Source: Escherichia coli (GTDB taxonomy: Bacteria > Pseudomonadota > Gammaproteobacteria > Enterobacterales > Enterobacteriaceae). From it: a DNA stretch of 64,000 nucleotides. This document shows positions 18,914-57,063 of this stretch, piece after piece. Positions within the stretch are counted from its first letter, which is position 1; every line of letters begins with the position of its first letter. The DNA is taken from NCBI RefSeq assembly GCF_003018255.1, contig NZ_CP027440.1; one strand, written 5' to 3'. Both the position numbers and the translations under genes were made by a program. Below the pieces are notes generated by a model. That model was not told the origin of the DNA, did no database searches, and was given only the letters and a program-made list of their open reading frames with translations.

Positions 18914-18930
18914 CATTTTCATTTCCTTAA

Positions 18931-21390: not shown

Positions 21391-21440
21391 ACCTGATAAA
21401 TATTTGAAGAAAGGCAGCGATAGCGCCGCCAAAGTGATAC

Positions 21441-22007: not shown

Positions 22008-22334
22008 AGCTGAGTCCTTTAAATAATGAGATAGAGTGTTGCGAGGCAAGAATATATTAACTGACAGTTGAATGTATTTGGTTTTATTTAACAATATTAA
22101 AAAGCTTGTTATATAAAGAATGGAATAATTGAGTGCATAAATTTATTGTTTAATGAGATGAAAGATGGGGTGGGATGGATATGCATAATTTTCATTGGGT
22201 TAACAATGCTACCGGCAGGAAAGTAAAAAAATAAACTTATCATTCTGCTCAGTATGTGGCTTGTCACATTTTTTCACCTTATTAATGGGTATTTGCATCT
22301 GGTTTAATTTTTACAATTTATTATGTTCAGCCAT

Positions 22335-22370
22335 ATAAAAAAGAACCCGCTCTATTAAAGGCGGGTCCGG
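22335..22370 (-). terminator. Rho-independent terminator after gltA
   Basis: Minus-strand hairpin GACCCGCC...GGCGGGTTC followed by a run of 6 T. Confidence 0.7.
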
Positions 22371-22396
22371 AAAGTAAACGGCTTAGCAATCAACCA

Positions 22397-27618: not shown

Positions 27619-27742
27619 CCGTAGGCCTGAGAAGACGCGCAAGCGTCGCATCAGGCAACCAGTGCCGGATGCGGCGTGAACGCCTTATCCGGCCTACAAG
27701 TCATTACCCGTAGGCCTGATAAGCGCAGCGCATCAGGCGTAA
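27619..27742. repeat. Cluster of REP (BIME-type) palindromic elements between sdhB and sucA
   Basis: Three imperfect palindromes of the GCCTGATGCGACGC / GCCGGATGCGGCGTGAACGCCTTATCCGGCCTAC type in alternating orientation. Confidence 0.8.
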
Positions 27743-33211: not shown

Positions 33212-34080
33212 TGTCCATTTTAATTGATAAAAACACCAAGGTTATCTGCCAGGGCTTTACCGGTAGCCAGGGGACTTTCCACTCAGAACAGGCCATTGCA
33301 TACGGCACTAAAATGGTTGGCGGCGTAACCCCAGGTAAAGGCGGCACCACCCACCTCGGCCTGCCGGTGTTCAACACCGTGCGTGAAGCTGTTGCTGCTA
33401 CTGGCGCTACCGCTTCTGTTATCTACGTACCAGCACCGTTCTGCAAAGACTCCATTCTGGAAGCTATTGATGCAGGCATCAAACTAATTATCACCATCAC
33501 TGAAGGCATCCCGACGCTGGATATGCTGACCGTGAAAGTGAAACTGGATGAAGCAGGCGTTCGTATGATCGGCCCGAACTGCCCAGGCGTTATCACTCCG
33601 GGTGAATGCAAAATCGGTATCCAGCCGGGTCACATTCACAAACCGGGTAAAGTGGGTATCGTTTCCCGTTCCGGTACACTGACCTATGAAGCGGTTAAAC
33701 AGACCACGGATTACGGTTTCGGTCAGTCGACCTGTGTCGGTATCGGCGGTGACCCGATCCCTGGCTCTAACTTTATCGACATCCTCGAAATGTTCGAAAA
33801 AGATCCGCAGACCGAAGCGATCGTGATGATCGGTGAGATCGGCGGTAGCGCTGAAGAAGAAGCGGCTGCGTACATCAAAGAGCACGTTACCAAGCCTGTT
33901 GTGGGTTACATCGCTGGTGTGACTGCGCCGAAAGGCAAACGTATGGGCCACGCGGGTGCGATCATTGCCGGTGGGAAAGGGACTGCGGATGAGAAATTCG
34001 CTGCTCTGGAAGCCGCAGGCGTGAAAACCGTTCGCAGCCTGGCGGATATCGGTGAAGCACTGAAAACTGTTCTGAAATAA
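33211..34080 (+). CDS. sucD: Succinyl-CoA synthetase alpha subunit (289 aa)
   Basis: [45 protein letters not shown]... Confidence 0.97.
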
Positions 34081-34180
34081 ATATCTGTAATAAGAAATAG
34101 CCCTCGCCGCTTCCTTCTACAGGAATGGCGAAGGGCTGTCGGTTTCGACATGGTTGGCCATCATATGATGGCCTTTTTTG
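34081..34180 (+). ncRNA. sdhX: 3-prime-UTR-derived small RNA region of sucD (SdhX/RybD-like) with intrinsic terminator
   Basis: About 100 nt after the sucD stop with two hairpins (AGCCCTCGCC...GGCGAAGGGCT and GGCCATCATATGATGGCC) followed by a T run at 34173-34179; ends not determined. Confidence 0.5.
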
Positions 34181-34183
34181 TGC

Positions 34184-34906
34184 TTATCGCGATGATTTTC
34201 GCTGCGCTATCAGGGTAAATTTATAGTCATCGGTATTAAAAGCGTTGCGGCTATATTCAAACACCCGGCCATCAACTAAATATCCACGCGATACTTTTTC
34301 AAGAATCGGCTTAGTCTGGCTGATATTAAGCAGACGGCTCATTTCTTCGGTTGGCATCAGAGGAATGATTTCCTGTTCGCTACGATCGATAACCATTTTC
34401 TTCACTTCTTCAATAAAGTGATATTTCGAATTTTCCATGACCTGCCAGGTGAGATCCGGGAACAACGCAAGCGGCATCCAGGTTTCTTCCAGCGCCATTG
34501 GCTTTTGCTTGCGATAGCGCACGCGCTTCACATGCCACACACGATCCTGCGCGGTGATTTGTAGCTGTTGCTGAAGAAAATCGTCAGCCGGAATCACTTC
34601 GAATATCAGAACTTCACTGTGTGTATCGACGTGACGGTCCGTCAGTTTTTCATCAAAACTGGTTAACTGAAAAATATCGTAATTGACCCGCTCTTCTTTT
34701 ACGTAAGTCCCGCTGCCCTGAATGCTTTCGAGGATCTGCTGTTCAACTAACTGGCGCAAAGCCTGACGCACCGTAACCCGGCTGACGCCAAACTCTGTTT
34801 GTAGCGCTGATTCAGTGGGTAACGCATCGCCAGGTTTAAGCTCGCCACGCGCAATTTGCTCACGAATGCGATCAGCAATCTGTCGGTATAAGGGTTTCCG
34901 TCCCAT
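34184..34906 (-). CDS. mngR: GntR-family transcriptional regulator of the mannosyl-D-glycerate operon (240 aa)
   Basis: N-terminal GntR HTH (MGRKPLYRQIADRIREQIARGELKPGDALPTESALQTEFGVSRVTVRQAL) plus UTRA-type C-terminal domain. Confidence 0.93.
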   Translation of the reverse strand: MGRKPLYRQIADRIREQIARGELKPGDALPTESALQTEFGVSRVTVRQALRQLVEQQILESIQGSGTYVKEERVNYDIFQLTSFDEKLTDRHVDTHSEVLIFEVIPADDFLQQQLQITAQDRVWHVKRVRYRKQKPMALEETWMPLALFPDLTWQVMENSKYHFIEEVKKMVIDRSEQEIIPLMPTEEMSRLLNISQTKPILEKVSRGYLVDGRVFEYSRNAFNTDDYKFTLIAQRKSSR

Positions 34907-35015
34907 GATTTAGCATCTCATTAATACGAATTTAGCCATTATGCCCGATAAATTCATCCTGTAAATAATACAAATACAATACAAATAATTTCAATCAAGT
35001 GAAATTGATCACATA

Positions 35016-36992
35016 ATGGTATTGTTTTATCGGGCACACTGGCGCGACTATAAAAACGATCAAGTGAGGATCATGATGAACCTGACGACTCTGACCCACC
35101 GCGATGCGTTGTGTCTGAATGCGCGCTTTACCAGCCGTGAAGAGGCCATCCACGCGTTGACTCAACGTCTTGCTGCTCTGGGGAAAATTTCCAGTACTGA
35201 GCAATTTCTGAAAGAAGTGTATCGCCGTGAAAGCCTTGGCCCGACCGCCTTAGGTGAAGGGCTGGCTGTGCCGCATGGCAAAACTGCTGCGGTAAAAGAA
35301 GCGGCGTTTGCGGTCGCCACACTCAGCGAGCCGCTTCAGTGGGAAGGCGTGGATGGCCCGGAAGCGGTTGATTTAGTGGTGTTGCTGGCGATTCCCCCCA
35401 ATGAAGCGGGTACTACGCACATGCAACTGCTGACAGCGCTGACCACGCGCCTGGCGGATGATGAGATACGGGCGCGTATACAGTCGGCGACGACGCCTGA
35501 TGAATTGCTCTCGGCGCTGGATGACAAGGGAGGCACGCAACCCTCAGCTTCTTTTTCCAACGCGCCAACTATCGTCTGCGTAACGGCCTGCCCGGCGGGT
35601 ATTGCTCACACCTATATGGCTGCGGAGTATCTGGAAAAAGCCGGACGCAAACTCGGCGTGAATGTCTACGTTGAAAAGCAAGGTGCTAACGGCATTGAAG
35701 GGCGTTTAACGGCAGAGCAACTCAATAGTGCAACCGCCTGTATTTTTGCGGCTGAAGTCGCCATCAAGGAGAGTGAGCGTTTTAACGGCATTCCCGCGCT
35801 TTCTGTGCCTGTTGCCGAGCCGATTCGCCATGCAGAAGCGTTGATCCAACAAGCGCTTAACCTCAAGCGTAGCGATGAGACGCGTACCGTACAGCAAGAT
35901 ACGCAACCGGTGAAAAGCCTCAAAACGGAGCTAAAACAGGCACTGTTGAGCGGGATCTCTTTTGCAGTGCCGTTGATTGTCGCGGGGGGCACGGTGCTGG
36001 CGGTTGCGGTATTACTGTCGCAAATCTTCGGGCTACAAGATTTGTTTAATGAAGAAAACTCCTGGCTGTGGATGTACCGCAAACTGGGCGGAGGGCTGCT
36101 CGGGATTTTGATGGTACCGGTGCTGGCAGCCTACACCGCCTATTCACTGGCTGATAAACCGGCGTTAGCGCCAGGCTTTGCGGCTGGACTTGCCGCCAAC
36201 ATGATCGGTTCCGGGTTTCTCGGTGCTGTCGTTGGCGGATTGATAGCCGGTTATCTGATGCGCTGGGTGAAAAATCACTTGCGTCTTAGCAGTAAATTCA
36301 ATGGATTCCTGACTTTTTATCTCTACCCGGTGCTCGGTACGTTGGGAGCGGGCAGTCTGATGCTGTTTGTGGTGGGGGAACCTGTCGCCTGGATCAATAA
36401 CTCGCTTACCGCCTGGCTGAACGGTCTGTCAGGAAGTAACGCGCTGTTGCTGGGTGCCATTCTCGGTTTTATGTGTTCCTTTGACCTTGGAGGGCCAGTG
36501 AACAAAGCCGCTTATGCATTCTGCCTGGGCGCAATGGCGAACGGCGTTTACGGCCCGTATGCCATTTTCGCCTCCGTCAAAATGGTTTCGGCATTTACCG
36601 TAACCGCTTCCACGATGCTCGCACCGCGCCTGTTTAAAGAGTTTGAAATTGAGACCGGGAAATCCACCTGGCTGTTAGGGCTGGCAGGTATTACCGAAGG
36701 GGCGATCCCGATGGCGATTGAAGATCCGCTGCGGGTTATTGGTTCGTTTGTGCTGGGCTCTATGGTAACGGGCGCTATCGTCGGCGCGATGAATATCGGC
36801 CTTTCGACACCCGGTGCCGGCATTTTCTCGCTCTTTTTACTTCATGATAATGGCGCGGGCGGTGTTATGGCGGCAATTGGCTGGTTTGGTGCGGCATTGG
36901 TGGGGGCTGCAATCTCGACTGCAATTCTTCTGATCTGGCGGCGTCACGCGGTTAAGCATGGCAACTATCTGACTGATGGCGTAATGCCATAA
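35016..36992 (+). CDS. mngA: PTS 2-O-alpha-mannosyl-D-glycerate-specific EIIABC component (658 aa)
   Basis: EIIA (PTS-type) N-terminal domain, EIIB, and polytopic EIIC domain; divergent from mngR. Confidence 0.9.
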
Positions 36993-37009
36993 ACAAAAAG
37001 GAAACGACG

Positions 37010-39643
37010 ATGAAAGCGGTATCTCGCGTTCACATCACCCCGCATATGCACTGGGATCGGGAGTGGTATTTCACCACCGAAGAGTCACGCATTCTGCTGG
37101 TCAATAATATGGAAGAGATCCTGTGCCGACTGGAACAGGACAACGAATACAAATATTACGTACTCGACGGGCAAACGGCGATCCTCGAAGATTATTTCGC
37201 GGTGAAACCGGAAAACAAAGACCGTGTGAAGAAACAGGTAGAAGCAGGCAAGTTGATTATCGGCCCCTGGTATACCCAGACCGATACCACGATTGTTTCT
37301 GCGGAATCCATCGTCCGTAATCTGATGTACGGAATGCGTGACTGCCTCACGTTTGGCGAGCCGATGAAAATAGGTTATTTACCAGATTCCTTTGGCATGT
37401 CCGGGCAACTGCCGCATATTTACAATGGATTTGGCATTACCCGCACCATGTTCTGGCGCGGATGTTCTGAGCGCCACGGTACTGATAAAACCGAGTTTTT
37501 GTGGCAAAGCAGTGACGGTAGCGAAGTGACGGCGCAGGTGCTGCCGCTGGGCTACGCCATCGGTAAGTACTTACCTGCCGACGAAGACGGATTACGCAAA
37601 CGCCTCGACAGTTATTTTGATGTGCTGGAAAAAGCGTCAGTAACCAAAGAGATTTTGCTGCCGAATGGTCATGACCAGATGCCATTGCAGCAAAATATCT
37701 TCGAAGTGATGGATAAGCTACGTGAGATCTACCCTCAACGTAAGTTTGTGATGAGCCGCTTTGAAGAGGTATTTGAGAAGATCGAAGCGCAGCGAGATAA
37801 TCTGGCAACCCTGAAAGGGGAATTTATTGATGGCAAATATATGCGCGTGCATCGCACCATCGGTTCTACGCGTATGGATATCAAAATTGCCCACGCGCGT
37901 ATTGAAAATAAGATTGTTAATCTGCTGGAACCGCTGGCAACGCTGGCCTGGACGTTGGGTTTTGAATACCACCACGGCTTGCTGGAGAAATTGTGGAAAG
38001 AAATTTTAAAAAACCACGCCCATGACAGCATCGGCTGCTGCTGTAGTGACAAAGTTCATCGCGAGATTGTCGCCCGTTTCGAACTGGCAGAAGACATGGC
38101 GGATAATCTGCTGCGTTTCTATATGCGTAAAATTGCCGATAACATGCCACAGAGTGATGCCGACAAACTTGTGCTGTTTAACCTGATGCCCTGGCCGCGG
38201 GAAGAAGTGATCAACACCACTGTGCGGCTGCGCGCCAGCCAGTTTAATTTGCGGGACGATCGCGGTCAGCCTGTACCGTATTTTATTCGCCATGCCCGTG
38301 AGATCGATCCTGGCCTAATCGATCGGCAAATCGTTCATTACGGTAATTATGATCCCTTTATGGAGTTTGATATTCAGATCAACCAGATTGTCCCTTCTAT
38401 GGGCTATCGCACGCTTTATATCGAAGCGAATCAGCCTGGCAACGTGATTGCGGCAAAAAGTGACGCTGAAGGGATACTGGAAAATGCTTTCTGGCAAATT
38501 GCGCTCAATGAGGATGGAACGCTACAACTGGTAGATAAAGACAGCGGTGTGCGCTATGACCGGGTGTTGCAAATTGAAGAAAGCTCTGATGATGGTGATG
38601 AATATGACTATTCACCCGCAAAAGAAGAGTGGGTAATTACTTCGGCGAACGCGAAACCGCAATGCGAGATTACTCATGAGGCCTGGCAGAGTAGGGCTGT
38701 TATCCGCTATGACATGGCGGTGCCGCGTAATCTGCATGAACGCAGCGCAAGACAATCCACTGGCAGAGTAGGGGTGGAGTTGGCTGTCACTCTGAGTGAT
38801 AACAGCAGGCGCATTGATGTGGATATCAACCTTGATAACCAGGCTGACGATCATCGCCTTCGCGTCCTGGTCCCTACACCTTTTAACACCGACAGTGTTC
38901 TGGCCGATACCCAGTTTGGTTCGCTAACGCGCCCCGTGAACGACAGTGCAATGAACAACTGGCAGCAAGAAGGCTGGAAAGAAGCGCCGGTTCCGGTATG
39001 GAATATGCTCAACTATGCTGCCTTACAGGAAGGGCGTAACGGTCTGGCTGTCTTTAGCGAAGGGCTACGTGAATATGAAGTCATCGGTGAAGAGAAGAAA
39101 ACCTTTGCCATTACGTTGCTGCGTGGCGTGGGCTTACTGGGGAAAGAAGATCTGCTTTTAAGGCCTGGACGTCCTTCAGGAATAAAAATGCCGGTGCCCG
39201 ATTCACAATTACGTGGCTCCTTTAGCTGCCGTCTGAGCTTATTTAGTTATACAGGTACGCCTTCGACCGCCGGTGTAGCCCAGCAGGCGCGCGCATGGCT
39301 GACGCCAGTACAGTGTTACAACAAAATCCCGTGGGATGCGATGAAGTTAAATAAAGCCGGATTCAATGTGCCGGAAAGCTATAGCTTGCTGAAAATGCCC
39401 CCTGTGGGATGCCTGATTAGCGCTCTTAAAAAAGCGGAAGACCGGCAAGAAGTGGTATTGCGACTGTTTAATCCGGCAGAATCGACAACCTGTGAGGCAA
39501 CTGTCGCGTTCAGTCGTGAGGTGATTTCATGTACGCAAACGATGATGGATGAAAGCATCAGCACAGCGGAAAGAGATAATTTAAAGGAACTGGGGGCATT
39601 TTTACCGGGGCAGTCACGGACATTTAGCTACCGCCTTGGCTGA
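37010..39643 (+). CDS. mngB: Alpha-mannosidase, glycoside hydrolase family 38 (877 aa)
   Basis: [38 protein letters not shown]... GH38 signature. Confidence 0.93.
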
Positions 39644-39681
39644 TTATTGCGCTAAAAGTGTATCTGAGGGGGGCAATAATT

Positions 39682-39712
39682 TCAGGCCATCTTCGGATGG
39701 CCTGAGATTGTT
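39682..39712 (+). terminator. Probable terminator after mngB
   Basis: Hairpin TCAGGCCATC-TTCG-GATGGCCTGA followed by a T-rich stretch. Confidence 0.55.
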
Positions 39713-39787
39713 GATAAACAAGTTTGTTAGCTTACGCAGATACCAGATTTGACCTGCGTGAGAACCGCAGGCCATTTATCATTTCAG

Positions 39788-41185
39788 TTACCCCTTAAAC
39801 GTTAACCACGGTCGAAATCTGACCGCTGGCTGAATTAATCCGGCTTCTTGTTGGGCTTCGATAACCGGACCAATATCTTTATAAGCCGCTGGCGCTTCTT
39901 CAAAACGTCGTTCTTCGCGCAATGTGACGCATTGCCACGGCAGCGTTGACTCTTCAGTCGCGCGTGAGCGCATGGCCTGCCGACGCTGGCTGCGTCCTGC
40001 TCCGTGACTGCATGACCACAGCCACTCCGGGTTGCCGCAACCTACCGCAAGCCACGAATAATCGCCCATTGAACCGGGGATTAACGCCAGATTGCCCACT
40101 CGTGCCGGTGTTGCGCCTTTGCGATGAATATTCATTTCATGCTCGCGAAGGATGATGTTATGTGGCACATCCACCACCAGATGCGAATTGTCCTGATGAA
40201 AGAGATTGGCAAGACATACGCGCACCATTTCGGCAATTGTGACGCGATTTAACCATGCGTAACGCGCCGCCATTCCTATCGCTTGTAGATATTCCTCCGC
40301 CAGTCCGCCTGCCAGACCATATAACCCGCTTTGTGGATGTTTATGTCCGGTGGGCCATTCAGCACGGGCGCGATCCATCCAGCGTCTTCCGACGTAAAAG
40401 CCAACATCTCGCGATCCACTGTGGATCATCACCACAATATCGCCTGTTTTCAGCCCTTGTTGCCAGGCTACATGGCGATCAACCACGCTATCAACGACCT
40501 GAAGTTCAATAAAATGATTACCTGAACCCGGCGTACCCAGACAAGGATCGCGGAGTAATGCGCGGTCCGTTGCCTGCAGGGCGGGTGGGGCATAACGCGA
40601 ATGACTGTTATGCTCGTTAAGCCCAATGCAGCGGTCAATCTCTTGTACCATTCGGGGGATATTCGTGCGTATCCAGAGACCTTCTGATGGCAAGGTCGAC
40701 ACGCAATCTGCCGGTCCGCCATCAAAAAGCGCGGTGAACGCCTGTGCGGATAACGGAACATCGCGCTCATTTTGCAGTAGCACTTGCGTTAACCGCTGAG
40801 CGATGACGTCTTTATGCGCTTCGGCTTGCTCAAGTGTTAATCCGGTCGTCAGCAGCCGCATGCCACAAGAAATATCGGTGCCGATGGCGGCGGGAATGAC
40901 TAAATCCGGCGTTGAGGCCACCACCGCGCCAACGGGGACGCCATTGCCGGGATGAAAATCTGGCGTCGCGCACGTCTGGCGCACATAACCTGGGTGGTCT
41001 GGTAGCTTCACTTCTGCAAAATCAAGCAGTTGTGTTACTGCTTTTTCTTCCAGCGGCAGTTCGTCCGGCAGCAGTACGCGGGCACTGGCACCTGATGGAC
41101 GAGATAATGAAACAATATTGTTGGCGCGGGAAAGTTGGATCCCTTTGCGCAGAAAGGCTTTATCAAGCCTTGAAAGATGATGCAT
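39788..41185 (-). CDS. RtcB-family RNA 3-prime-phosphate ligase paralog (465 aa), orphan
   Basis: Conserved RtcB motifs: TPDFHPGNG, IPAAIGTDISCGMRLL, GTPGSGNHFIELQ, MIHSGSRDVG, IPGSMG, CSHGAGR, AYKDIGPVIEAQ; N-terminus about 30 aa longer than canonical RtcB; start codon uncertain. Confidence 0.85.
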   Translation of the reverse strand: MHHLSRLDKAFLRKGIQLSRANNIVSLSRPSGASARVLLPDELPLEEKAVTQLLDFAEVKLPDHPGYVRQTCATPDFHPGNGVPVGAVVASTPDLVIPAAIGTDISCGMRLLTTGLTLEQAEAHKDVIAQRLTQVLLQNERDVPLSAQAFTALFDGGPADCVSTLPSEGLWIRTNIPRMVQEIDRCIGLNEHNSHSRYAPPALQATDRALLRDPCLGTPGSGNHFIELQVVDSVVDRHVAWQQGLKTGDIVVMIHSGSRDVGFYVGRRWMDRARAEWPTGHKHPQSGLYGLAGGLAEEYLQAIGMAARYAWLNRVTIAEMVRVCLANLFHQDNSHLVVDVPHNIILREHEMNIHRKGATPARVGNLALIPGSMGDYSWLAVGCGNPEWLWSCSHGAGRSQRRQAMRSRATEESTLPWQCVTLREERRFEEAPAAYKDIGPVIEAQQEAGLIQPAVRFRPWLTFKG

Positions 41186-41490
41186 AACGCTGTCCTGAAA
41201 TATAGACGTTAAACAACCCCCTGTATGGCGAGGGTAATTTTGTCTTTCCGGTCAGCAGCCAGCAAAAGGGAAAGAAAACGCGCGTAGTGTATGTGGCGAT
41301 AGCAAGTGTTACAAGTGGTAAATCTGGCTTATTGTTAAAGAGGAATTATCTTTTGTGAAGTCTTTTAAGGCCATGACTCATTCAATTTAACCGGACATAG
41401 ATAATATATAACATAGGGTATCTAAATTTATCATTGTATACTTGTCATAATTCAAGTTGCATGTGCTGCATCGATGTTCGCTCACCCAGG

Positions 41491-42060
41491 TCACTTACTT
41501 ATGTAAGCTTCTGGAAATTCATTATTTGTTCCCTTCCTGCAACTTGACTTATTTAGAGTATATTCATGTATACACATCGAGATTTCAGCCAGCAGACGCG
41601 CATCTGGCGTGCCGTGGCGGATCTGTAGCGGTTTTTGCAGAGTTTCGGTGAGGCGACGGCAAGCTGCAACGCCGTGGTTAACGACCGGTAAACCGTTCAG
41701 TTTAGAGGTTCCGGCTTCGATGGATTTTTTAATCCCTACAGCCGCTTCTTCGTACCGATTCAGACGGGTATATGCATCGATGGTGCTCGGCAGCAGATCG
41801 CACTCTTCTTGTAGTGTTTTCAGTAGTTCGATGTGTTCGTCCATCAGCGCCACACCTGCGCGCGGTTGGCTAAGGGTTTTACCTTCCTTGTCTGCTTTCA
41901 ACAGCGCAAGAGAGAAGCGTTTATGCTCAGGAATGGTTTGTTGGTATTTAACGCCATCTTCAAAGTTTTCAACATCCTTGCCGGTTTCCCAGGTTTTCAG
42001 TACCTGTTGCCGCTCGGTCATGAATTCGTCATGGGTTAATTTCTTATTTCGAAGTTCCAT
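41491..42060 (-). pseudogene. glmE: Glutamate mutase E (epsilon) subunit, truncated: 189 codons versus about 480 in intact homologs
   Basis: [33 protein letters not shown]...[20 protein letters not shown]...[15 protein letters not shown]...[13 protein letters not shown] resembles the GlmE N-terminus; similarity ends near codon 165, then 24 unrelated codons and stop. Confidence 0.75.
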
Positions 42061-42078
42061 TGATTGCAGCCTTAATTG

Positions 42079-43467
42079 TTATAGGGTTAAGCATTGAATA
42101 CTGGTGCGCGCGGCGGCCAGCGGATCGACTCTGGCGACGTTTGCCAGCAGTGGTAATAGCCCCCGGGAATCGCGGTAATATTCAAATTCGGTCGGTAAGA
42201 GAATGCGTTTACCGTCGTCGTTTAACTCGCGGTATTTCAACCAGTGATGCATATCGAACTGACTGGCACGCGAGAGCCATCCGCCGGATCCGACGACTTT
42301 ACGCACGGTTGTCAGGTCACGTCCCATCTGTAAATCGACATTGCCGACGCAGGTGCAGACCTCTTTTTTGGTGCCCGCATGTCTTTCGGTGGCATAACCC
42401 ACACACAGTCCGGCCAGGACGGTATCGAAATATTTTTCTTCTGCATTCGCGGGTAAGTAGTCGGGATGAGCGACTAGATGACGGAGGTAATGATAAAAAG
42501 CGTCCAGCTGTGCGGGTTGCTGAGCAAAATTCACATTGACTAACTCTTTCGCACTTTCACCAACCACCATTGCCGAGACGCGCATTCCCAGATCTCCTTC
42601 CACCGTCCGTTTTACGAAGGGTTCCGGTACGCCATGTAAAACAGTGTCGGGCGAGAGCGTGTTGGCACTGGCGGAATAGACATCGGTGGTTGCGCCACCC
42701 ATGTCGATCAGCATGAACTCTTTCCAGCTGTGATCGACATTACTGATTGCCTTAACCAGTTCAAAGACTGTCCACGGTGTCGGCATTGGTTCTTCGCCTG
42801 TTTTATCAACAACGACATCCAGCCCTTTCCCTTTAACGATGCGTTTAAGGAATATGTCGCAGATAGCCTGGCGTGCAGCTAAAGGGTTCGGATGGTCAAG
42901 ATCGGGCAGAACGTTGTCGACGATGGTCAGGTCTTTATGCCCGAGGATCTCCTGCACCTCGTCCTGAATATCCCGGTTTCCGGCATAAATAATGGCGCAG
43001 TCGAGTTTGGATTCTGCCAACACACGGGCGTTATTCAGTCCGTAGCTTTCTTCTCCGCCATCGGTGCCGCCGGTGAACAAGAGAATATCGGGCTGCGTTT
43101 CTTCCAGTGCCTGGATATCACGGCGGTTCAGCTTGTAGGCGTAAGATTGCGCAATTTTAGCACCCGCAGAGTGAGCGGTTACTTTCGCGGTTTCCAGGGT
43201 GATAGAAGGCACCAATCCCATTGCGGCAACCGCCAGCCCACCTTTGGCAGAGGAGGAATACTTCAATGCAACCTCACCACTGTTTAACAGGGGGAGGGCA
43301 TCATCTACGTTTAACACCTGGTCCAGGCTGGAGAAAAACCCCTTCGCCAGATGATGGGTGGTGGTTGGGGTCAGTACGTGGTTAACCAACGTTAACGCGT
43401 CCCCCTCCCGGGCGAAGAGGGCTGCTTTGGTCCACGTCGATCCAATATCGACAGAGACGATTTGCAT
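42079..43467 (-). CDS. glmL: Glutamate mutase accessory protein GlmL/MutL-like (462 aa)
   Basis: [18 protein letters not shown]... actin/Hsp70-like ATPase fold; translationally coupled to glmS (TGATG overlap); placed between glmS and glmE as in clostridial operons. Confidence 0.75.
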   Translation of the reverse strand: MQIVSVDIGSTWTKAALFAREGDALTLVNHVLTPTTTHHLAKGFFSSLDQVLNVDDALPLLNSGEVALKYSSSAKGGLAVAAMGLVPSITLETAKVTAHSAGAKIAQSYAYKLNRRDIQALEETQPDILLFTGGTDGGEESYGLNNARVLAESKLDCAIIYAGNRDIQDEVQEILGHKDLTIVDNVLPDLDHPNPLAARQAICDIFLKRIVKGKGLDVVVDKTGEEPMPTPWTVFELVKAISNVDHSWKEFMLIDMGGATTDVYSASANTLSPDTVLHGVPEPFVKRTVEGDLGMRVSAMVVGESAKELVNVNFAQQPAQLDAFYHYLRHLVAHPDYLPANAEEKYFDTVLAGLCVGYATERHAGTKKEVCTCVGNVDLQMGRDLTTVRKVVGSGGWLSRASQFDMHHWLKYRELNDDGKRILLPTEFEYYRDSRGLLPLLANVARVDPLAAARTSIQCLTL

Positions 43468-43916
43468 CAGATTGCCTCTTCAAGAATACGAGTATCAACG
43501 TCATGACGTTGGTTGATATCGTGGGCCATCAGCTGACAAACATCTTCTAAGTCATGACTTGGGGCAAAGACGCGATCAAATCCCATCTCTTTGAATTTGG
43601 TTTCCACGTCAGCGAAGTCATGTTTTCCGACCACCAGGTTACCGCCCACATAGAGCAGGATGTCCCCCAGTCCACGCTCGATGCAGCGTTCGCGCATGCC
43701 CAGACAGTCGATATCGCCATGCCCATAGATAGAGGAGACGACAATCGCGTCAGCACCAGTTTCAATGGCAGCATCAATATATTCGTCCTGGCTGACCATT
43801 ACGCCCAGATTAATAACTCTGAAGTCATGGTTGCTAAAAACGCGGTCCAGAACTTTATTGCCTACTGCATGGCAGTCCGCGCCAATAACGCCAATCACAA
43901 GTGTTGCTTTCTTCAT
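43467..43916 (-). CDS. glmS: Glutamate mutase S (sigma) subunit, B12-binding (149 aa)
   Basis: [24 protein letters not shown]... with the DxHxxG cobalamin-binding motif; AGGA RBS 7 nt upstream of this ATG (the listed ORF extends 21 codons further upstream). Confidence 0.8.
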
Positions 43917-44463
43917 GGGTAATCCTTTGTAAGACAGAGAGTAAAATAAGTTACACACGTCGTATTTATGGCCGCTCATAACGGCACAGGTTTAATATCA
44001 CAGGAGTGTCTTTATCTGACCGTAATGTTGCAATTGATCTATTTTCAAAATGTCTTTCGGGAAATGATTGTTTAAAGTGTGTTTTCAAATTCTCATGTTA
44101 ATTCAGTGTGTTATGTCAACTAATGTCATGAATGTTAAATTTTTAAAATTAACTTGATTTGATGTATTGAGATAATTGTGATCAACTTCTAATTTGCATT
44201 TTAGTGATATGGGGTTAGCCATGAGTAAATGCATTTCATAAAAGTTAAGTCGAATTTCACTGCAATTCATCTCTGCTTAATGTAAAAATAATGTTGAAAA
44301 TAACAAATAATTAATGATTCATGCGAATTATGACCTTTGTTAGCTCTTTTGATTTTTCGTAAAAAAGAAAAGTACATGAAGGTGCTACCAGTACGAGAAA
44401 CGTTAATCAAAAGTTTTATTACGTCTGGCAATAACGCAGGCCATTTTTCGCGACAGGAGGGAT

Positions 44464-44886
44464 TTAATCAGTATAATCCTCATACAATAGGTCAGGATTT
44501 ACAGAACCGTTAACGGGGTTTTGGTGTTGAAATTTAGAAATGGTGGAGTCAATCAATGAAGACAGTATCGAAAAAATGACTGTGTCAGAATTAATTTCAA
44601 TTAATCCTTCTCGTTGTTGACCAAAAAAGATATTTATCTTGATTTCATTTGTACTACGGAAATCAATATGTAGTAATTTTTGATCGCTGAGATTTTCTGT
44701 TTCATAAATGTTTTTGGCGATAGTCGGATGTATTGATGCCAGACATCTGCTCAGATAAGCCAGATCCTTTAGGGAACACCCCGCTGAGTAGAGGATGTCA
44801 GAGAATTTTTGTGTGTCAACTGTTGGCTCTGAAGCGTATGTTGCATTGACTGGAAGGGTGTTGAAGGAGATTTGAGATGGGATCAT
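44464..44886 (-). CDS. Hypothetical protein (140 aa), small and acidic, low GC
   Basis: Intact ORF MIPSQISFNTLPVNATYASEPTVDTQKF...; no recognisable motif; sits in an AT-rich segment of the island. Confidence 0.5.
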   Translation of the reverse strand: MIPSQISFNTLPVNATYASEPTVDTQKFSDILYSAGCSLKDLAYLSRCLASIHPTIAKNIYETENLSDQKLLHIDFRSTNEIKINIFFGQQREGLIEINSDTVIFSILSSLIDSTISKFQHQNPVNGSVNPDLLYEDYTD

Positions 44887-44966
44887 TATTTAAATCTTTC
44901 CGTGAGTAATAAAAATTAATCCCCGGGCATTGTTTAGTAATATTTGCCACAGGGGATATATAAAAA

Positions 44967-45911
44967 TTAAAGTATTTGATTGGCATCGGTTAACTGATCA
45001 ATAACCAGTGCCAGATTGGTAAACATTTTGAAAAAGCGATACTGGCTCGGAATATCTCTTTCAAAGACGAAACATTCAATGTCATTGTTTGAAAAATAAA
45101 GGACTAGTGATGCTGATTCGTCAGGAAAAATATGGAAATATATCTGGTTACCAGAAGGAGGATAGTCCAGAAGAAGGGTATCTTTGCCCGTCACATACCT
45201 GTTGTGGTCGTGGATGCTGCGCTCACACTTCATCAGAGGTGTCATGATACTCATGTATTCATCTGATGTTAATATATTAAAATCACCATCCATTTTAAAG
45301 AAACGATAAAGTAACAGTACATCCTCTTGCGTAACCGGTTCGTTTGTTTTTAGAGGGAAATAAGTGGGAACCAGAAGATGAGGTTCTAATCTATTTTGTT
45401 GAGCGCTATAACTAAATTTGAACATAAATTCCGGATCGCTCATCAATTGAGCGACATAATTATGCCTGGCTTCAAAAATTTTAACTTTTATCAGGTTAAA
45501 TAAGTCTGTTTCGTCATCCTGTATTAAAAGACATTGGCCATAGCAGCCAGGCTTTTTTTCATTATAAGCAGAAACGGTTATTCTGTCAGGAGTGTCAACG
45601 TTATATCCAAAAGCCAGATAGTGACCTTCCTCATCGAGATTTGTTTCCAGGTTATTTAAATTCATCACATGAAGTGTTTGCAATGCTGATTCAATGAGCT
45701 GTTGACTCTCTGAGGTAAATGTTTCGCGCTGCGTTGTATAAAGTGTATCGATTCCAACGACTATCCGATGTGGGTCAAGGATGGCGGCAATCATCTTTAT
45801 TACCTGCACAGTCATGGGTGATGTCATTGATTCTTTATCTGTTTTTAGAGGATCATTAGATGGCCAACCTGAGAAGCGATTGACAGCAGAACTGATAATA
45901 TCAGGACTCAT
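44967..45911 (-). CDS. Hypothetical protein (314 aa), low GC
   Basis: Intact ORF MSPDIISSAVNRFSGWPSNDPLKTDKESM...; GAGG RBS 8 nt upstream of ATG; no signal peptide or TM helix evident; no family recognised. Confidence 0.6.
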   Translation of the reverse strand: MSPDIISSAVNRFSGWPSNDPLKTDKESMTSPMTVQVIKMIAAILDPHRIVVGIDTLYTTQRETFTSESQQLIESALQTLHVMNLNNLETNLDEEGHYLAFGYNVDTPDRITVSAYNEKKPGCYGQCLLIQDDETDLFNLIKVKIFEARHNYVAQLMSDPEFMFKFSYSAQQNRLEPHLLVPTYFPLKTNEPVTQEDVLLLYRFFKMDGDFNILTSDEYMSIMTPLMKCERSIHDHNRYVTGKDTLLLDYPPSGNQIYFHIFPDESASLVLYFSNNDIECFVFERDIPSQYRFFKMFTNLALVIDQLTDANQIL

Positions 45912-46365
45912 AGCAGCAACCTCATTGTAATCAAGCGAGGCGCTGAGCGTACTCGGCTATAGAAAAACTAACTTGCAAAAATCGCTCATTTTTCATTTAT
46001 CAGGCGAAAGTGGTCTCTGTTCACTCAGAAACAATCACTCCCGCTAAGTCATACCTGTTTCATCGATACATTTAAGTGATTATTACTAATGAAACAATAA
46101 CATAATGGGCTTACGGCCGGTGCTCATAAACGCAACAATCAATTAACTTTGATAAAAATATGTTATGTAAAATAGCAACAAATTGGCTAATCTAATCAAT
46201 TGGTATTATAAAAAGTGGATAAGGCGGTTCTGTTAAATAAAACACTGGTTTTTTATCTATACCTTTTCATTGTAATAATTGTGTTGCATAAATATTTCAC
46301 AATAAATTAACAATAAAATCACCAATGATCTATGGTTTATACATAATTAACATATTTGGTTGATT

Positions 46366-46379
46366 TTGATATAAATCAA
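46366..46379. promoter_or_regulatory. FNR/CRP-type palindromic site in the cydA upstream region
   Basis: Perfect TTGAT-ATAA-ATCAA (TTGAT N4 ATCAA) about 340 bp upstream of cydA in an AT-rich leader. Confidence 0.55.
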
Positions 46380-46716
46380 TTTTTAATTCTTGAAAAAAAT
46401 CTGCAAAACACGATAAATTGTCGTAGATCAAATTGGTGAGATCGTGACAATTTCGCTATAAATTGATCACTGTCGAAAAATGCAAATTTGCTCAATAAAA
46501 ACCTGTTTATTGTAAGGATTTTGCGGCGTAATATAATTACGGGATCAATTTGGTTTATTCATTAACACATTTGTAACTTTTTTATCATTGTCTTTTCCTC
46601 TTTTGATGAAATGGCAACGATAGAGGCGAGCAAATAATTTTGTATTGGGGCATGCGTGTGACCCTTTCTAACGGGGTTCACTCTCGGAGTCTTCATGCGA
46701 TGAGCAAGGAGTCATG

Positions 46717-48285
46717 ATGTTAGATATAGTCGAACTGTCGCGCTTACAGTTTGCCTTGACCGCGATGTACCACTTCCTTTTTGTGCCACTGACGCTCGGT
46801 ATGGCGTTCCTGCTGGCCATTATGGAAACGGTCTACGTCCTTTCCGGCAAACAGATTTATAAAGATATGACCAAGTTCTGGGGCAAGTTGTTTGGTATCA
46901 ACTTCGCTCTGGGTGTGGCTACCGGTCTGACCATGGAGTTCCAGTTCGGGACTAACTGGTCTTACTATTCCCACTATGTAGGGGATATCTTCGGTGCGCC
47001 GCTGGCAATCGAAGGTCTGATGGCCTTCTTCCTCGAATCCACCTTTGTAGGTCTGTTCTTCTTCGGTTGGGATCGTCTGGGTAAAGTTCAGCATATGTGT
47101 GTCACCTGGCTGGTGGCGCTCGGTTCAAACCTGTCCGCACTGTGGATTCTGGTTGCGAACGGCTGGATGCAAAACCCAATCGCGTCCGATTTCAACTTTG
47201 AAACTATGCGTATGGAGATGGTGAGCTTCTCCGAGCTGGTGCTTAACCCGGTTGCTCAGGTGAAATTCGTTCACACTGTAGCGTCTGGTTATGTGACTGG
47301 CGCGATGTTCATCCTCGGTATCAGCGCATGGTATATGCTGAAAGGTCGTGACTTCGCCTTCGCTAAACGCTCTTTTGCTATCGCTGCCAGCTTCGGTATG
47401 GCTGCCGTTCTGTCTGTTATTGTTCTGGGTGATGAATCTGGTTACGAAATGGGCGACGTGCAGAAAACCAAACTGGCTGCTATTGAAGCCGAGTGGGAAA
47501 CGCAACCTGCGCCTGCTGCCTTTACTCTGTTCGGCATTCCTGATCAGGAAGAGGAGACGAACAAATTTGCGATCCAGATCCCTTACGCGCTGGGCATCAT
47601 TGCAACGCGTTCCGTGGATACTCCAGTTATCGGCCTGAAAGAACTGATGGTGCAGCATGAAGAACGCATTCGTAACGGGATGAAGGCGTACTCTCTGCTC
47701 GAGCAACTGCGTTCTGGTTCTACCGACCAGGCGGTTCGTGACCAGTTCAATAGCATGAAGAAAGACCTCGGTTACGGTCTGCTGCTGAAACGCTATACGC
47801 CAAACGTGGCTGATGCGACTGAAGCGCAGATTCAACAGGCAACCAAAGACTCCATTCCGCGTGTAGCGCCGCTGTACTTCGCGTTCCGTATCATGGTGGC
47901 GTGTGGCTTCCTGCTGCTGGCAATCATCGCGCTCTCTTTCTGGAGTGTCATCCGCAACCGCATTGGCGAGAAAAAATGGCTGCTGCGCGCCGCGCTGTAC
48001 GGTATTCCGCTGCCGTGGATTGCTGTAGAAGCGGGCTGGTTCGTGGCTGAATATGGTCGCCAACCGTGGGCTATCGGTGAAGTGCTGCCGACAGCTGTGG
48101 CGAACTCGTCACTGACCGCAGGCGATCTCATCTTCTCAATGGTGCTGATTTGCGGCCTGTATACCCTGTTCCTGGTGGCAGAATTGTTCTTAATGTTCAA
48201 ATTTGCACGCCTCGGCCCAAGCAGCCTGAAAACCGGTCGCTATCACTTTGAGCAGTCTTCCACGACTACTCAGCCGGCACGCTAA
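46717..48285 (+). CDS. cydA: Cytochrome bd-I ubiquinol oxidase subunit I (522 aa)
   Basis: [41 protein letters not shown]... Confidence 0.97.
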
Positions 48286-54301: not shown

Positions 54302-54847
<546 letters not shown>

Positions 54848-54856
54848 GAGAATTGC

Positions 54857-55648
54857 ATGAGCAGTAACTTCAGACATCAACTATTGAGTCTGTCGTTACT
54901 GGTTGGTATAGCGGCCCCCTGGGCCGCTTTTGCTCAGGCACCAATCAGTAGTGTCGGCTCAGGCTCGGTCGAAGACCGCGTCACTCAACTTGAGCGTATT
55001 TCAAATGCTCACAGCCAGCTTTTAACCCAACTCCAGCAACAACTCTCTGATAATCAATCCGATATTGATTCCCTGCGCGGTCAGATTCAGGAAAATCAGT
55101 ATCAACTGAATCAGGTCGTGGAGCGGCAAAAGCAGATCCTGTTGCAGATCGATAGCCTCAGCAGCGGTGGTGCAGCGGCGCAATCAACCAGCGGTGATCA
55201 AAGCGGTGCGGCGGCATCAACGACGCCGACAGCTGATGCTGGTACTGCGAATGCTGGCGCGCCGGTGAAAAGCGGCGATGCAAACACGGATTACAATGCA
55301 GCAATTGCGCTGGTGCAGGATAAATCCCGCCAGGATGAAGCAATAGTGGCATTTCAGAATTTCATCAAAAATTACCCTGATTCAACTTACCTGCCAAACG
55401 CCAATTATTGGCTGGGTCAGTTAAACTACAACAAGGGTAAAAAAGATGATGCGGCGTATTATTTTGCTTCGGTAGTGAAAAACTATCCGAAGTCACCGAA
55501 GGCTGCAGATGCGATGTTTAAAGTCGGCGTCATCATGCAGGACAAAGGTGACACCGCAAAAGCGAAAGCCGTATACCAGCAGGTTATCAGTAAATACCCT
55601 GGTACTGATGGCGCTAAACAGGCGCAAAAACGTCTGAACGCGATGTAA
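54857..55648 (+). CDS. cpoB: Cell division coordinator CpoB (YbgF), TPR protein (263 aa)
   Basis: MSSNFRHQLLSLSLLVGIAAPWAAFAQ signal peptide, coiled coil, TPR repeats. Confidence 0.95.
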   Translation: MSSNFRHQLLSLSLLVGIAAPWAAFAQAPISSVGSGSVEDRVTQLERISNAHSQLLTQLQQQLSDNQSDIDSLRGQIQENQYQLNQVVERQKQILLQIDSLSSGGAAAQSTSGDQSGAAASTTPTADAGTANAGAPVKSGDANTDYNAAIALVQDKSRQDEAIVAFQNFIKNYPDSTYLPNANYWLGQLNYNKGKKDDAAYYFASVVKNYPKSPKAADAMFKVGVIMQDKGDTAKAKAVYQQVISKYPGTDGAKQAQKRLNAM

Positions 55649-55812: not shown

Positions 55813-55888
55813 GGGTCGTTAGCTCAGTTGGTAGAGCAGTTGACTTTTAATCAATTGGTCGCAGGTTCGAATCCTGCACGACCCACCA
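55813..55888 (+). tRNA. lysT: tRNA-Lys (anticodon UUU)
   Basis: GGGTCGTTAGCTCAGTTGGTAGAGCAGTTGACTTTTAATCAATTGGTCGCAGGTTCGAATCCTGCACGACCCACCA. Confidence 0.95.
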
Positions 55889-56023
55889 ATCGCTAAGGTG
55901 GAAGCGGTAGTAAAACGTGAAGGATAACGTTGCGTCAGCAACGGCCCGAAGGGCGAGACGAAGTCGAGTCATCCTGCACGACCCACCACTAACCTAGTTA
56001 GTTGTAGTATCCAGCGTAGTATC

Positions 56024-56099
56024 GGGTGATTAGCTCAGCTGGGAGAGCACCTCCCTTACAAGGAGGGGGTCGGCGGTTCGATCCCGTCATCACCCACCA
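56024..56099 (+). tRNA. valT: tRNA-Val (anticodon UAC)
   Basis: GGGTGATTAGCTCAGCTGGGAGAGCACCTCCCTTACAAGGAGGGGGTCGGCGGTTCGATCCCGTCATCACCCACCA. Confidence 0.95.
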
Positions 56100-56101
56100 C
56101 C

Positions 56102-56177
56102 GGGTCGTTAGCTCAGTTGGTAGAGCAGTTGACTTTTAATCAATTGGTCGCAGGTTCGAATCCTGCACGACCCACCA
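56102..56177 (+). tRNA. lysW: tRNA-Lys (UUU)
   Basis: Identical to the lysT sequence. Confidence 0.95.
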
Positions 56178-56228
56178 CTAATTACGGTGGGTTCGGTGGA
56201 AGTAGTTTGTAGTATTCAGCGCAGTATC

Positions 56229-56304
56229 GGGTGATTAGCTCAGCTGGGAGAGCACCTCCCTTACAAGGAGGGGGTCGGCGGTTCGATCCCGTCATCACCC
56301 ACCA
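56229..56304 (+). tRNA. valZ: tRNA-Val (UAC)
   Basis: Identical to the valT sequence. Confidence 0.95.
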
Positions 56305-56307
56305 CTC

Positions 56308-56383
56308 GGGTCGTTAGCTCAGTTGGTAGAGCAGTTGACTTTTAATCAATTGGTCGCAGGTTCGAATCCTGCACGACCCACCA
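56308..56383 (+). tRNA. lysY: tRNA-Lys (UUU)
   Basis: Identical to the lysT sequence. Confidence 0.95.
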
Positions 56384-56529
56384 GTTTTAACATCAAACTC
56401 AGATGTTAAGCGTGAAGGATAACGTTGCGCCAGCAACGGCCCGTAGGGCGAGCGAAGCGAGTCATCCTGCACGACCCACCAATTTTAAAGATTGGTTCCG
56501 AGTAGAAATCTTTCAGGTAACACCCGTAT

Positions 56530-56605
56530 GGGTCGTTAGCTCAGTTGGTAGAGCAGTTGACTTTTAATCAATTGGTCGCAGGTTCGAATCCTGCACGACC
56601 CACCA
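56530..56605 (+). tRNA. lysZ: tRNA-Lys (UUU)
   Basis: Identical to the lysT sequence. Confidence 0.95.
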
Positions 56606-56638
56606 TCCTGAATGATTAAAGCAGCATAATCCCGCAAG

Positions 56639-56714
56639 GGGTCGTTAGCTCAGTTGGTAGAGCAGTTGACTTTTAATCAATTGGTCGCAGGTTCGAATCC
56701 TGCACGACCCACCA
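56639..56714 (+). tRNA. lysQ: tRNA-Lys (UUU)
   Basis: Identical to the lysT sequence. Confidence 0.95.
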
Positions 56715-57063
56715 ATGTAAAAAAGCGCCCTAAAGGCGCTTTTTTGCTATCTGCGATACTCAAAGATTCGAACCTGCAGCAGGTTCGAGTTGAGCGCAGC
56801 GAAACAACGGAGCCGCTCGCGGCGACGGCCCGTAGGGCGAGCGAAGCGAGTTATCCTGCACGACCCACCAATGTAAAAAAGCGCCCTAAAGGCGCTTTTT
56901 TGCTATCTGCGATACTCAAAGATTCGAACCTGCAGCAGGTTCGAGTTGAGCGCAGCGAAATAACGGAGCCGCTCGCGGCGACGGCCCGTAGGGCGAGCGA
57001 AGCGAGTCATCCTGCACGACCCACCAATGTAAAAAAGCGCCCTAAAGGCGCTTTTTTGCTATT
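56715..57063 (+). repeat. Tandem direct repeat, 156-bp period, about 2.2 copies; each unit carries a terminator hairpin and a tRNA-Lys 3-prime-end fragment
   Basis: Units 56715-56870 and 56871-57026 differ at about 3 positions; a partial third copy (terminator part) follows at 57027-57063; each unit ends ...ATCCTGCACGACCCACCA. Confidence 0.9.
56719..56747 (+). terminator. Rho-independent terminator after lysQ (repeated at about 56875 and 57031)
   Basis: AAAAAAGCGCCC-TAAA-GGCGCTTTTTTG hairpin with T run. Confidence 0.85.

Follow-up and report, generated by a model that had tools for sequence, protein, structure and literature searches.

The mngB-cydA interval of the Escherichia coli strain analysed here raises the question of what the additional DNA at this position represents and how its arrangement arose. 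The window under study, a stretch of 64,000 nucleotides, had initially been annotated as containing a gap of 7071 bp with six minus-strand open reading frames between the two genes, at a position where K-12 was expected to carry less than 1 kb. Both statements held on re-examination, since the gap measures about 7,070 bp (7,070-7,073 bp) with six minus-strand ORFs and that of K-12 MG1655 comprises 846 bp. The extra DNA is an ordinary piece of the accessory genome, namely a damaged version of the methylaspartate (glutamate-fermentation) cluster described earlier.

Genetic composition of the mngB-cydA interval

An alignment of the window with K-12 revealed that homology ends at position 39646 and restarts at position 46341, and the strain-specific segment is therefore delimited to 39647-46340 (6,694 bp). 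The interval 39720-45950 that had been proposed as DNA lacking in K-12 is indeed absent there, with true boundaries that are slightly wider. In K-12 the segment is replaced by an unrelated 470-bp sequence that includes a REP-like element. The ORFs were named according to NCBIfam and Pfam matches and to the RefSeq entry of a genome almost identical to the window, with 17 mismatches over 19.3 kb, and these sources agreed with the earlier identification of an RtcB paralog, a truncated glmE gene, glmL and glmS.

The mngR-mngA-mngB cassette (34184-39643; RefSeq annotation) forms the left module of the variable locus and lies outside the interval considered initially. The mngB gene (37010-39643, plus strand) is convergent with an intact RtcB-family gene of 465 amino acids (39788-41185, minus strand), and both are separated by a spacer (39644-39787). 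The upstream spacer of the RtcB gene (41186-41572, minus strand, 37.9% GC) leads to the remaining glm genes on the minus strand, which are followed by an AT-rich spacer upstream of glmS (43917-44463, 32.2% GC), the minus-strand orphan ORFs hyp140 (44464-44886) and hyp314 (44967-45911) and a stretch of island-specific AT-rich DNA (45912-46340, 32.6% GC) that extends up to the resumed K-12 homology. The cydA upstream regulatory region (46341-46716, plus strand) and cydA itself (ORF call from 46714, RefSeq start 46717) complete the interval. The mosaic composition noticed initially was evident as well, with GC contents of 54.1% for the RtcB gene, 52.9% for glmL, 37.1% for hyp140, 38.2% for hyp314 and 32-38% for the spacers, as compared with 51.2% for the whole window.

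Variation at the sucD-cydA locus of E. coli

A comparison of complete E. coli genomes indicated that five cassettes are combined differently between sucD and cydA: mngRAB, the stand-alone RtcB gene, a hut cluster, the methylaspartate-pathway cluster with the gene order LysR-cobO-fumD-transporter-DUF4387-AtuA-mal-glmE-glmL-glmS, and the two orphan ORFs. The annotated complete genome of K-12 shows the arrangement sucD-mngRAB-cydA, O157:H7 and 042 share sucD-LysR...glmS-hyp-hyp-cydA, and EE72d, LD67-1 and 2013C-4282 contain sucD-mngRAB-RtcB-LysR...cydA, sucD-RtcB-hut-LysR... and sucD-RtcB-LysR...cydA, respectively. The mngRAB cassette is missing from O157:H7, 042, LD67-1 and 2013C-4282; in these four, the match to the window ends at about position 34180. 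O157:H7 and 042 keep only short RtcB scars. The initial annotation had mentioned reports of a fuller cluster at this position in O157:H7; the complete cluster does adjoin cydA there, in line with the literature (PMC4682846), but replaces mngRAB instead of lying beside mngB, and the variable position is therefore sucD-cydA rather than mngB-cydA. The interval in the window represents the right-hand part of this hypervariable locus.

Among 5,426 complete E. coli genomes, mngB was detected in 3,878, glmL-glmS in 1,130 (about 21%), the two orphan ORFs in 1,134 and the RtcB paralog in 289, and mngB adjoins the RtcB gene in 133. These counts, along with the absence of the segment from K-12, confirm the accessory status that had been assigned, as the 7 kb are far from common to most E. 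coli. The published survey by Kronen, Sasikaran & Berg (2015), who described the cluster and the activity of FumD, put the share of carriers at 26.5% for E. coli and 90.6% for O157:H7 and noted a scattered occurrence among other enterobacterial genera (PMC4682846).

The locus displays the patchy distribution (about 21% carriers) and atypical composition (GC contents of 32%-54% versus 51.2%) of a classical mobile island. Its other hallmarks, an integrase or recombinase, a tRNA gene or att site and flanking direct repeats, were not found: repeat scans and the annotation yielded no integrase, IS element or long flanking repeats at the locus, and a search of positions 33500-47000 yielded neither a tRNA gene nor a match to an RNA family. 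The term "island" here denotes a recombination-exchanged cassette and not a mobile element. Variation at sucD-cydA would spread by homologous recombination through the flanking core genes rather than by means of a mobile element. These data document sucD-cydA as a modular recombination hotspot, a result of little importance beyond bookkeeping.

An 8,843-bp deletion in the methylaspartate cluster

The intact accessory block spans about 15.8 kb and comprises the RtcB gene, the genes LysR-cobO-fumD-dicarboxylate symporter-DUF4387-AtuA-like-mal-glmE-glmL-glmS and the pair hyp140-hyp314. The window corresponds to the full arrangement of mng, RtcB and glm genes minus 8,843 bp (EE72d locus L004, positions 13930-22772), in agreement with the earlier view of a partly deleted copy of a fuller cluster. 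The left flank is collinear with EE72d up to locus position 13929, and the junction was read directly from the sequences: window position 41572 is connected to position 41575 by the 2-nt filler CA (41573-41574), which takes the place of the 8,843 bp. Neither an IS element nor a repeat is present at the junction, and an imperfect inverted repeat (41437-41461 and 41538-41562) ends 10 bp short of the breakpoint.

A single illegitimate deletion fused codon 162 of glmE to the spacer upstream of the RtcB gene. Lost with it were the genes for the LysR regulator and the transporter, two DUF genes, the genes for CobO (adenosyltransferase), FumD (mesaconase) and methylaspartate ammonia-lyase, and the C-terminal two thirds of glmE. 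An assembly or sequencing artefact as the cause of the truncation has a negligible probability, as the same junction occurs in five independent complete genomes, from sources that comprise a pig isolate as well as Japan, China and Mexico; L001, L016 and L017 have an identical junction sequence. Strain A34 carries a separate 5.1-kb deletion at the locus, and since this event is independent, erosion recurs. Accordingly, the published methylaspartate cluster of pathogenic E. coli erodes at sucD-cydA via independent deletions, and glmS or glmL alone should therefore not be counted as presence of the pathway in pan-genome or metabolic-model surveys.

Fate of the remaining glm genes

The glmE pseudogene (41575-42060, minus strand) retains the N-terminal 162 codons and matches positions 1-162 of the 480 positions of profile TIGR01503; the ORF (41491-42060) runs across the junction to a stop at 41491, and RefSeq labels the fragment an incomplete pseudogene. 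The glmL gene (42079-43467, minus strand) encodes a full-length methylaspartate mutase accessory protein with scores above the cut-offs of TIGR01319 (883 bits) and NF040745 (508.7 bits). The glmS gene (43467-43916, minus strand) specifies the full-length B12-binding small subunit of methylaspartate mutase, with 149 amino acids from the RefSeq start, 253 bits against NF002612 (cut-off 110) and 246.6 bits against TIGR01501, also above the cut-off. No full-length catalytic subunit GlmE is encoded at the locus, nor are the adjacent methylaspartate ammonia-lyase and FumD, which both lie inside the deleted segment.

Judged from the gene content of the locus, the route from glutamate via methylaspartate and mesaconate to citramalate would be inoperative in this strain, because mal, fumD and cobO are deleted along with the genes for regulator and transporter and with two thirds of glmE, and the intact glmS and glmL genes would therefore be relics. 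Even for the intact cluster, Kronen et al. found no conditions giving expression (PMC4682846). The AT-rich spacer at 43917-44463 presumably holds the glm operon promoter, and no RNA element or riboswitch of Rfam matched the spacers at E <= 1.

Every annotated genome with the deletion retains glmS and glmL as intact ORFs, and this persistence could hint at residual use. In such a case glmS-glmL, possibly along with the N-terminal GlmE fragment, would keep a function under selection, for example in B12 binding or as chaperones. A comparison of the relic genes of the window with those of strain A25, which yielded 21 synonymous and 9 non-synonymous changes (pN/pS of about 0.13), is in line with this explanation. 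However, the relic alleles of A25 are 99.8-99.9% identical to alleles of many genomes with an intact cluster, and the SNPs among the deletion-sharing genomes are clustered in patches around an identical 359-bp zone across the junction, with a dense patch in the spacer at 43917-44463. This clustering indicates recombination, and the low pN/pS value was therefore imported from functional copies and did not arise after the deletion. Purifying selection on the relic genes was rejected as an explanation on these grounds. Moreover, no regulator, adenosyltransferase, lyase, mesaconase or catalytic mutase subunit is left at the locus, and a selected function of the relics is very improbable.

Flanking haplotypes and age of the accessory block

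The sequences beside the segment differ markedly from those of K-12. Identity to K-12, 98-99% further out, falls to about 82% in the final 450 bp of mngB and to 82.6% in the aligned block 46341-46778 upstream of cydA, whereas island-bearing genomes match the latter region at 98-100%. The cydA promoter haplotype linked to the island is thus about 17% diverged from the K-12 sequence that underlies all studies of cydAB regulation.

This steep increase of divergence beside the indel suggests that the haplotypes are old, and rather than a recent horizontal acquisition, the block might be an old Escherichia polymorphism that was ancestral at sucD-cydA and was lost in most lineages including K-12; "island" would then be a misnomer and the window one stage of loss. 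The RtcB scars in O157 and 042 point to loss rather than gain, mobility genes are absent, and a homologue of hyp314 (64% amino-acid identity) adjoins cydA in a contig with a 94.6%-identical cydA gene. On the other hand, the block is restricted to about 21% of E. coli and is mosaic in GC content, and the gene cluster has a scattered occurrence in other enterobacterial genera (PMC4682846). The 470-bp replacement DNA of K-12 contains no scar of island genes, its sole match being the REP-like repeat, and the nearest relatives of the RtcB paralog outside Escherichia, found in Betaproteobacteria and Pseudomonas, are 60-67% identical proteins. An ancestral origin of the block consequently appears possible but somewhat doubtful. 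By contrast, we are highly confident in the explanation as a whole, according to which mngRAB is followed in this strain by a degraded copy of the accessory block of about 15.8 kb, shortened by one deletion at a locus where variation is spread by recombination. The overall interpretation given in the initial annotation is supported.

The stand-alone RtcB paralog and the orphan ORFs

The deduced protein of the RtcB gene matches Pfam family PF01139 (6.9e-95, residues 63-465) and is 30% identical to K-12 RtcB, with conserved metal-binding and GMP-histidine motifs. Alignments with the Pyrococcus horikoshii protein showed that all six residues D95, C98, H203, H234, H329 and H404 are kept. As the gene is intact and all catalytic residues are retained, the product is predicted to be an active Mn/GTP-dependent 3'-P/5'-OH RNA ligase. 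Membership in the RtcB2-PrfH module is not indicated, with scores of 171.8 for TIGR03073 (cut-off 271.8) and 208.7 for NF007153 (cut-off 407), and no prfH gene lies beside the paralog, whose neighbours are mngB and the glmE pseudogene. A conserved partner gene of this 465-aa RtcB clade was not found in Pseudomonas or Burkholderia; a KptA/Tpt1 gene (PF01885) was observed once as a neighbour, in Chitinivorax. No sigma-54 promoter was detected within two mismatches upstream of the paralog. Generic sigma-70 and terminator scans gave no enrichment over shuffled sequence. An inverted-repeat scan identified a hairpin at 39674-39713 with an 18-bp stem between the convergent genes (-30.8 kcal/mol; z-scores of -5.0 on the plus and -4.6 on the minus strand), which is probably a terminator for both mngB and the RtcB gene.

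The orphan ORFs hyp140 and hyp314 have no family match in Pfam, NCBIfam, PADLOC or PHROGs. A word-index search and a complete HMMER run against 1.84 billion representatives yielded Escherichia sequences or fragments only: homologues of hyp140 are confined to E. coli and Shigella, and hyp314 was represented by fragments among these representatives and by five clusters among 5.8 billion proteins. The 64%-identical homologue of hyp314, likewise of 314 amino acids, occurs in a more distant Escherichia-like contig without glm genes. The dN/dS values are 0.24-0.40 for hyp140 and 0.36-0.52 for hyp314, and hyp140 is frameshifted in DETEC-S792 and P0046/P0047. AlphaFold models reached pLDDT values of only 41.8 (hyp140) and 43.5 (hyp314), too poor for a fold search. 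No phage matches were obtained by tblastn, and the only "plasmid" matches were records of 0.7-4.9 Mb, presumably mislabelled chromosomal sequence. Both ORFs are conserved, evolve fast, occur only in Escherichia and accompany the glm operon.

A more far-reaching proposal, which we regard as speculative and unlikely, is that hyp140 and hyp314 form a genuine translated Escherichia-specific pair with a function of its own and, separately, that the RtcB paralog is a third RNA-repair ligase of E. coli. In about 21% of E. coli the pair would be inherited together with the glutamate mutase operon, staying intact after destruction of the pathway, and it could constitute a new small module, for instance related to regulation or host interaction, located in AT-rich DNA of the H-NS type next to the cydAB control region. 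The stand-alone long-form RtcB protein could have its own ribotoxin target. The stand-alone RtcB gene and the two Escherichia-only ORFs are flagged as three uncharacterised genes.

Comparison with known systems

The glmS, glmL and glmE sequences of the window share 97.7-98.9% nucleotide identity with the O157:H7 cluster (PMC4682846), and the whole right-hand block is 98.1% identical; both occupy the same position adjoining cydA, next to the same two hypothetical ORFs. Of the O157:H7 cluster, the genes for LysR, DUF4387, the AtuA-like protein and the transporter as well as cobO, fumD, mal and two thirds of glmE are missing from the window, which carries mngRAB and an intact RtcB gene that O157:H7 does not have. 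The locus of EE72d is collinear with about 98% identity on either side of the junction and shows the same RtcB-linked haplotype of the mngB 3' end, but it retains the 8,843 bp missing from the window. The K-12 region is bounded by the same genes and shares, in diverged form, the proximal 373 bp upstream of cydA, with 470 bp of unrelated DNA as opposed to the 6,694 bp of the window.

With the E. coli RtcB of the rtcBA/rtcR operon and with RtcB2 (PMC9304027, PMC9223846), the paralog shares the PF01139 family, the Asp/Cys/His metal ligands and the SHGAGR motif with the GMP-accepting histidine. Unlike K-12 RtcB it is a long form (465 amino acids) closest to the Thermus and Pyrococcus structures, and in contrast to the rtcBA/rtcR operon and the RtcB2-PrfH module it stands without rtcA, rtcR or prfH as a neighbour.

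Gene content and boundaries of the mngB-cydA interval

Between the end of mngB (39643) and the start of cydA (46714 in the ORF listing, 46717 in RefSeq), six ORFs are located on the minus strand of the window. They comprise an RtcB-family gene (39788-41185; 54.1% GC; PF01139 at 6.9e-95), a glmE fragment within an ORF at 41491-42060 that matches only positions 1-162 of the 480-position NCBIfam model, the glmL (42079-43467) and glmS (43467-43916) genes, both above the curated NCBIfam cut-offs, and two unknown ORFs, hyp140 (44464-44886; 37.1% GC) and hyp314 (44967-45911; 38.2% GC). With AT-rich spacers of 32-38% GC, the ORF listing and composition confirm the mosaic gene set of the initial annotation. 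The complete genome of E. coli JNE23-011, which has only 17 mismatches to the window over 19,301 bases of the locus, is annotated with the same ORFs, glmE being marked as an incomplete pseudogene. A hairpin between the convergent mngB and RtcB genes (39674-39713; 18-bp, perfect-looking stem; -30.8 kcal/mol, z-score -5) is likely a terminator shared by both.

The corresponding gap of K-12 MG1655 measures 846 bp and is devoid of these additional ORFs, as had been expected for a gap below 1 kb. By sensitive BLAST, homology to K-12 stops at 39646 and restarts at 46341, and the strain-specific segment therefore spans 39647-46340 (6,694 bp). In its place K-12 contains 470 bp of unrelated DNA with a REP-like repeat as sole content, in which no scars of island genes were found. 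Identity to K-12 amounts to 98-99% for sucCD and cydAB and for the greater part of mngA. Within mngB it falls from ~98-99% over the first ~1 kb to ~93-96% in the middle and ~82% over the last ~450 bp (39200-39646), and this diverged 3' haplotype was detected only in the 133 of 5,426 complete E. coli genomes in which RtcB directly adjoins mngB. Upstream of cydA, the aligned block (46341-46778) shows 82.6% identity to K-12. The control region preceding cydA (46341-46716) occurs in two deep haplotypes, of which the island-linked one of the window is 98-100% identical to that of O157-type genomes; to our knowledge, all work on cydAB regulation concerns the K-12 haplotype.

An 8,843-bp deletion within the island

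The window is collinear with EE72d, the intact reference arrangement, at ~98% identity except where positions 13930-22772 of the EE72d locus (8,843 bp) give way to the dinucleotide CA at 41573-41574. The left breakpoint lies 387 bp upstream of the RtcB start codon and the right one after glmE codon 162; the genes lost are LysR, cobO, fumD, the symporter, DUF4387, the AtuA-like gene, mal and the remainder of glmE. The same junction is spanned in five complete genomes, and the exact junction string was identical in the three checked, so the deletion is real and of single origin. Neither an IS remnant nor useful microhomology was found at the junction. An imperfect inverted repeat of 25 nt at 41437-41562, with 80% complementarity and arms 76 nt apart, stops 10 bp short of the left breakpoint and may have promoted the deletion. 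Since the catalytic subunit, lyase, mesaconase, adenosyltransferase and regulator are gone, we infer from gene content that the methylaspartate pathway would be dead in this strain.

The window and A25, which carries the same deletion, diverge by 1.3% over 19.3 kb, with 21 synonymous and 9 non-synonymous differences in the truncated glmE and in glmL and glmS. Taken at face value, this low pN/pS suggests selection on the relic genes. This reading was rejected because the A25 relic alleles are 99.8-99.9% identical to those of many intact-cluster genomes and because the differences are densely clustered, leaving an identical zone of 359 bp that spans the junction. These results are diagnostic of homologous recombination with intact copies after the deletion; the low pN/pS was inherited from functional donors and is uninformative on the relics. 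A dense patch of ~30 SNPs at 44079-44660 (glmS-hyp140 spacer and 3' half of hyp140), separating the window and JNE23-011 from the two further carriers of the deletion that were compared, DETEC-S792 and A25, looks like a recombination tract.

Modular arrangements of the sucD-cydA locus

At least seven arrangements were distinguished among annotated complete genomes, the window included. K-12 contains mngRAB only, and O157:H7 and 042 carry the cluster LysR-cobO-fumD-symporter-DUF4387-AtuA-mal-glmE-glmL-glmS-hyp140-hyp314 and lack the mng genes. The fuller cluster that had been anticipated at this position in O157:H7 is thus present beside cydA, but not beside mngB. In 2013C-4282 RtcB precedes this cluster; in LD67-1 an 8.6-kb histidine-utilisation (hut) cassette (L005 13500-22150) is inserted into the spacer between RtcB and the LysR-hyp314 cluster. 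EE72d combines mngRAB, RtcB and the full cluster, A34 represents the EE72d type minus 5.1 kb from LysR to the AtuA-like gene, and the window, with mngRAB, RtcB, a truncated glmE and glmL-glmS-hyp140-hyp314, is the seventh type. The RtcB-LysR spacer contains both the site of the hut insertion and the left breakpoint of the window's deletion. The A34 deletion (5,076 bp; L013 3776-5127) takes out cobO, fumD, the symporter and DUF4387, leaves the remnants of the LysR and AtuA-like genes, both truncated, fused with 9 bp of overlap, and is independent of that of the window in the same island.

RtcB 3' scars of 44 bp and/or 57 bp directly follow sucD in 042 (L006 12001-12096) and O157:H7 (L002 2836-2892), and RtcB was therefore lost from these arrangements; ~450 bp of unrelated DNA separate the scars from LysR. 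In a more distant Escherichia-like contig (cydA 94.6% identical), the sucD-cydA gap encodes just an unannotated protein of 258 aa and a homologue of hyp314 at 64% identity, the mng, RtcB and glm genes all being absent. The 258-aa protein (L007 11786-12562) matches no Pfam family, and its N-terminus is hydrophobic, possibly a signal peptide.

The RtcB paralog and the orphan ORFs

The RtcB paralog (465 aa) is only 30% identical to K-12 RtcB; among proteins of solved structure, it most resembles the long-form enzymes of Thermus and Pyrococcus. Alignments show conservation of every metal-binding residue and of the GMP-accepting histidine, and by sequence an active RNA ligase is the likeliest reading of the protein. 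It differs from the PrfH-associated RtcB2 in scoring below the NCBIfam model cut-offs; rtcA, rtcR and prfH are absent from its neighbourhood in the annotated near-identical genome, and a search for an upstream sigma-54 promoter motif found none. The closest named relatives outside Escherichia (60-67% identity) are stand-alone genes of Betaproteobacteria and Pseudomonas, one of which adjoins a KptA/Tpt1 gene.

Neither hyp140 nor hyp314 belongs to a family in Pfam, NCBIfam, PADLOC or PHROG. Homologues were restricted to Escherichia and Shigella, also when 1.84 billion representatives were scanned in full with HMMER, none was found on phages or true plasmids, and the quality of the AlphaFold models was too low for further use. 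Values of dN/dS of 0.24-0.52, along with strict length conservation down to 64% identity, argue that both are real coding genes; hyp140 is frameshifted in some genomes, including DETEC-S792.

Other features of the window

According to the annotation of a near-identical genome, 759-8171 contains an RHS core protein gene with a frameshift, after which come small ORFs resembling immunity genes (for an NTF2-fold immunity protein and a DUF6258 protein), a fragment of an RHS gene and a transposase of the ISAs1 type (ybfD), which is truncated. Seven tRNA genes downstream of cpoB (55813-57026), tRNA-Lys and tRNA-Val by annotation of related genomes, are interleaved with four RtT-family matches. Further matches were a CpoB/ybgF thermometer (54748-54886) and a REP-like naRNA4 (27624-27694).

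Distribution and comparison with the published cluster

Among the 5,426 complete E. coli genomes, mngB is present in 3,878, the hyp140-hyp314 block in 1,134, glmL-glmS in 1,130 (20.8%) and full-length RtcB in 289, with ~400 further genomes retaining only a 39-bp RtcB scar. Together with the absence from K-12 and the deletion relative to EE72d, these frequencies support the initial annotation, which had correctly read 39720-45950 (~6.2 kb) as accessory, partly deleted DNA. The finding amounts to ordinary variation of the accessory genome at a hotspot of recombination.

A paper of 2015 described the cluster, its FumD mesaconase and its patchy spread, with occurrence in 26.5% of E. coli and 90.6% of O157:H7 (PMC4682846). 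Expression conditions were sought by its authors and none found. In the consulted sections, neither the RtcB gene nor either of the orphan ORFs is mentioned. The cluster is already known, and the window holds a degraded state of it; the 20.8% found here is similar in order of magnitude to the published 26.5% (PMC4682846).
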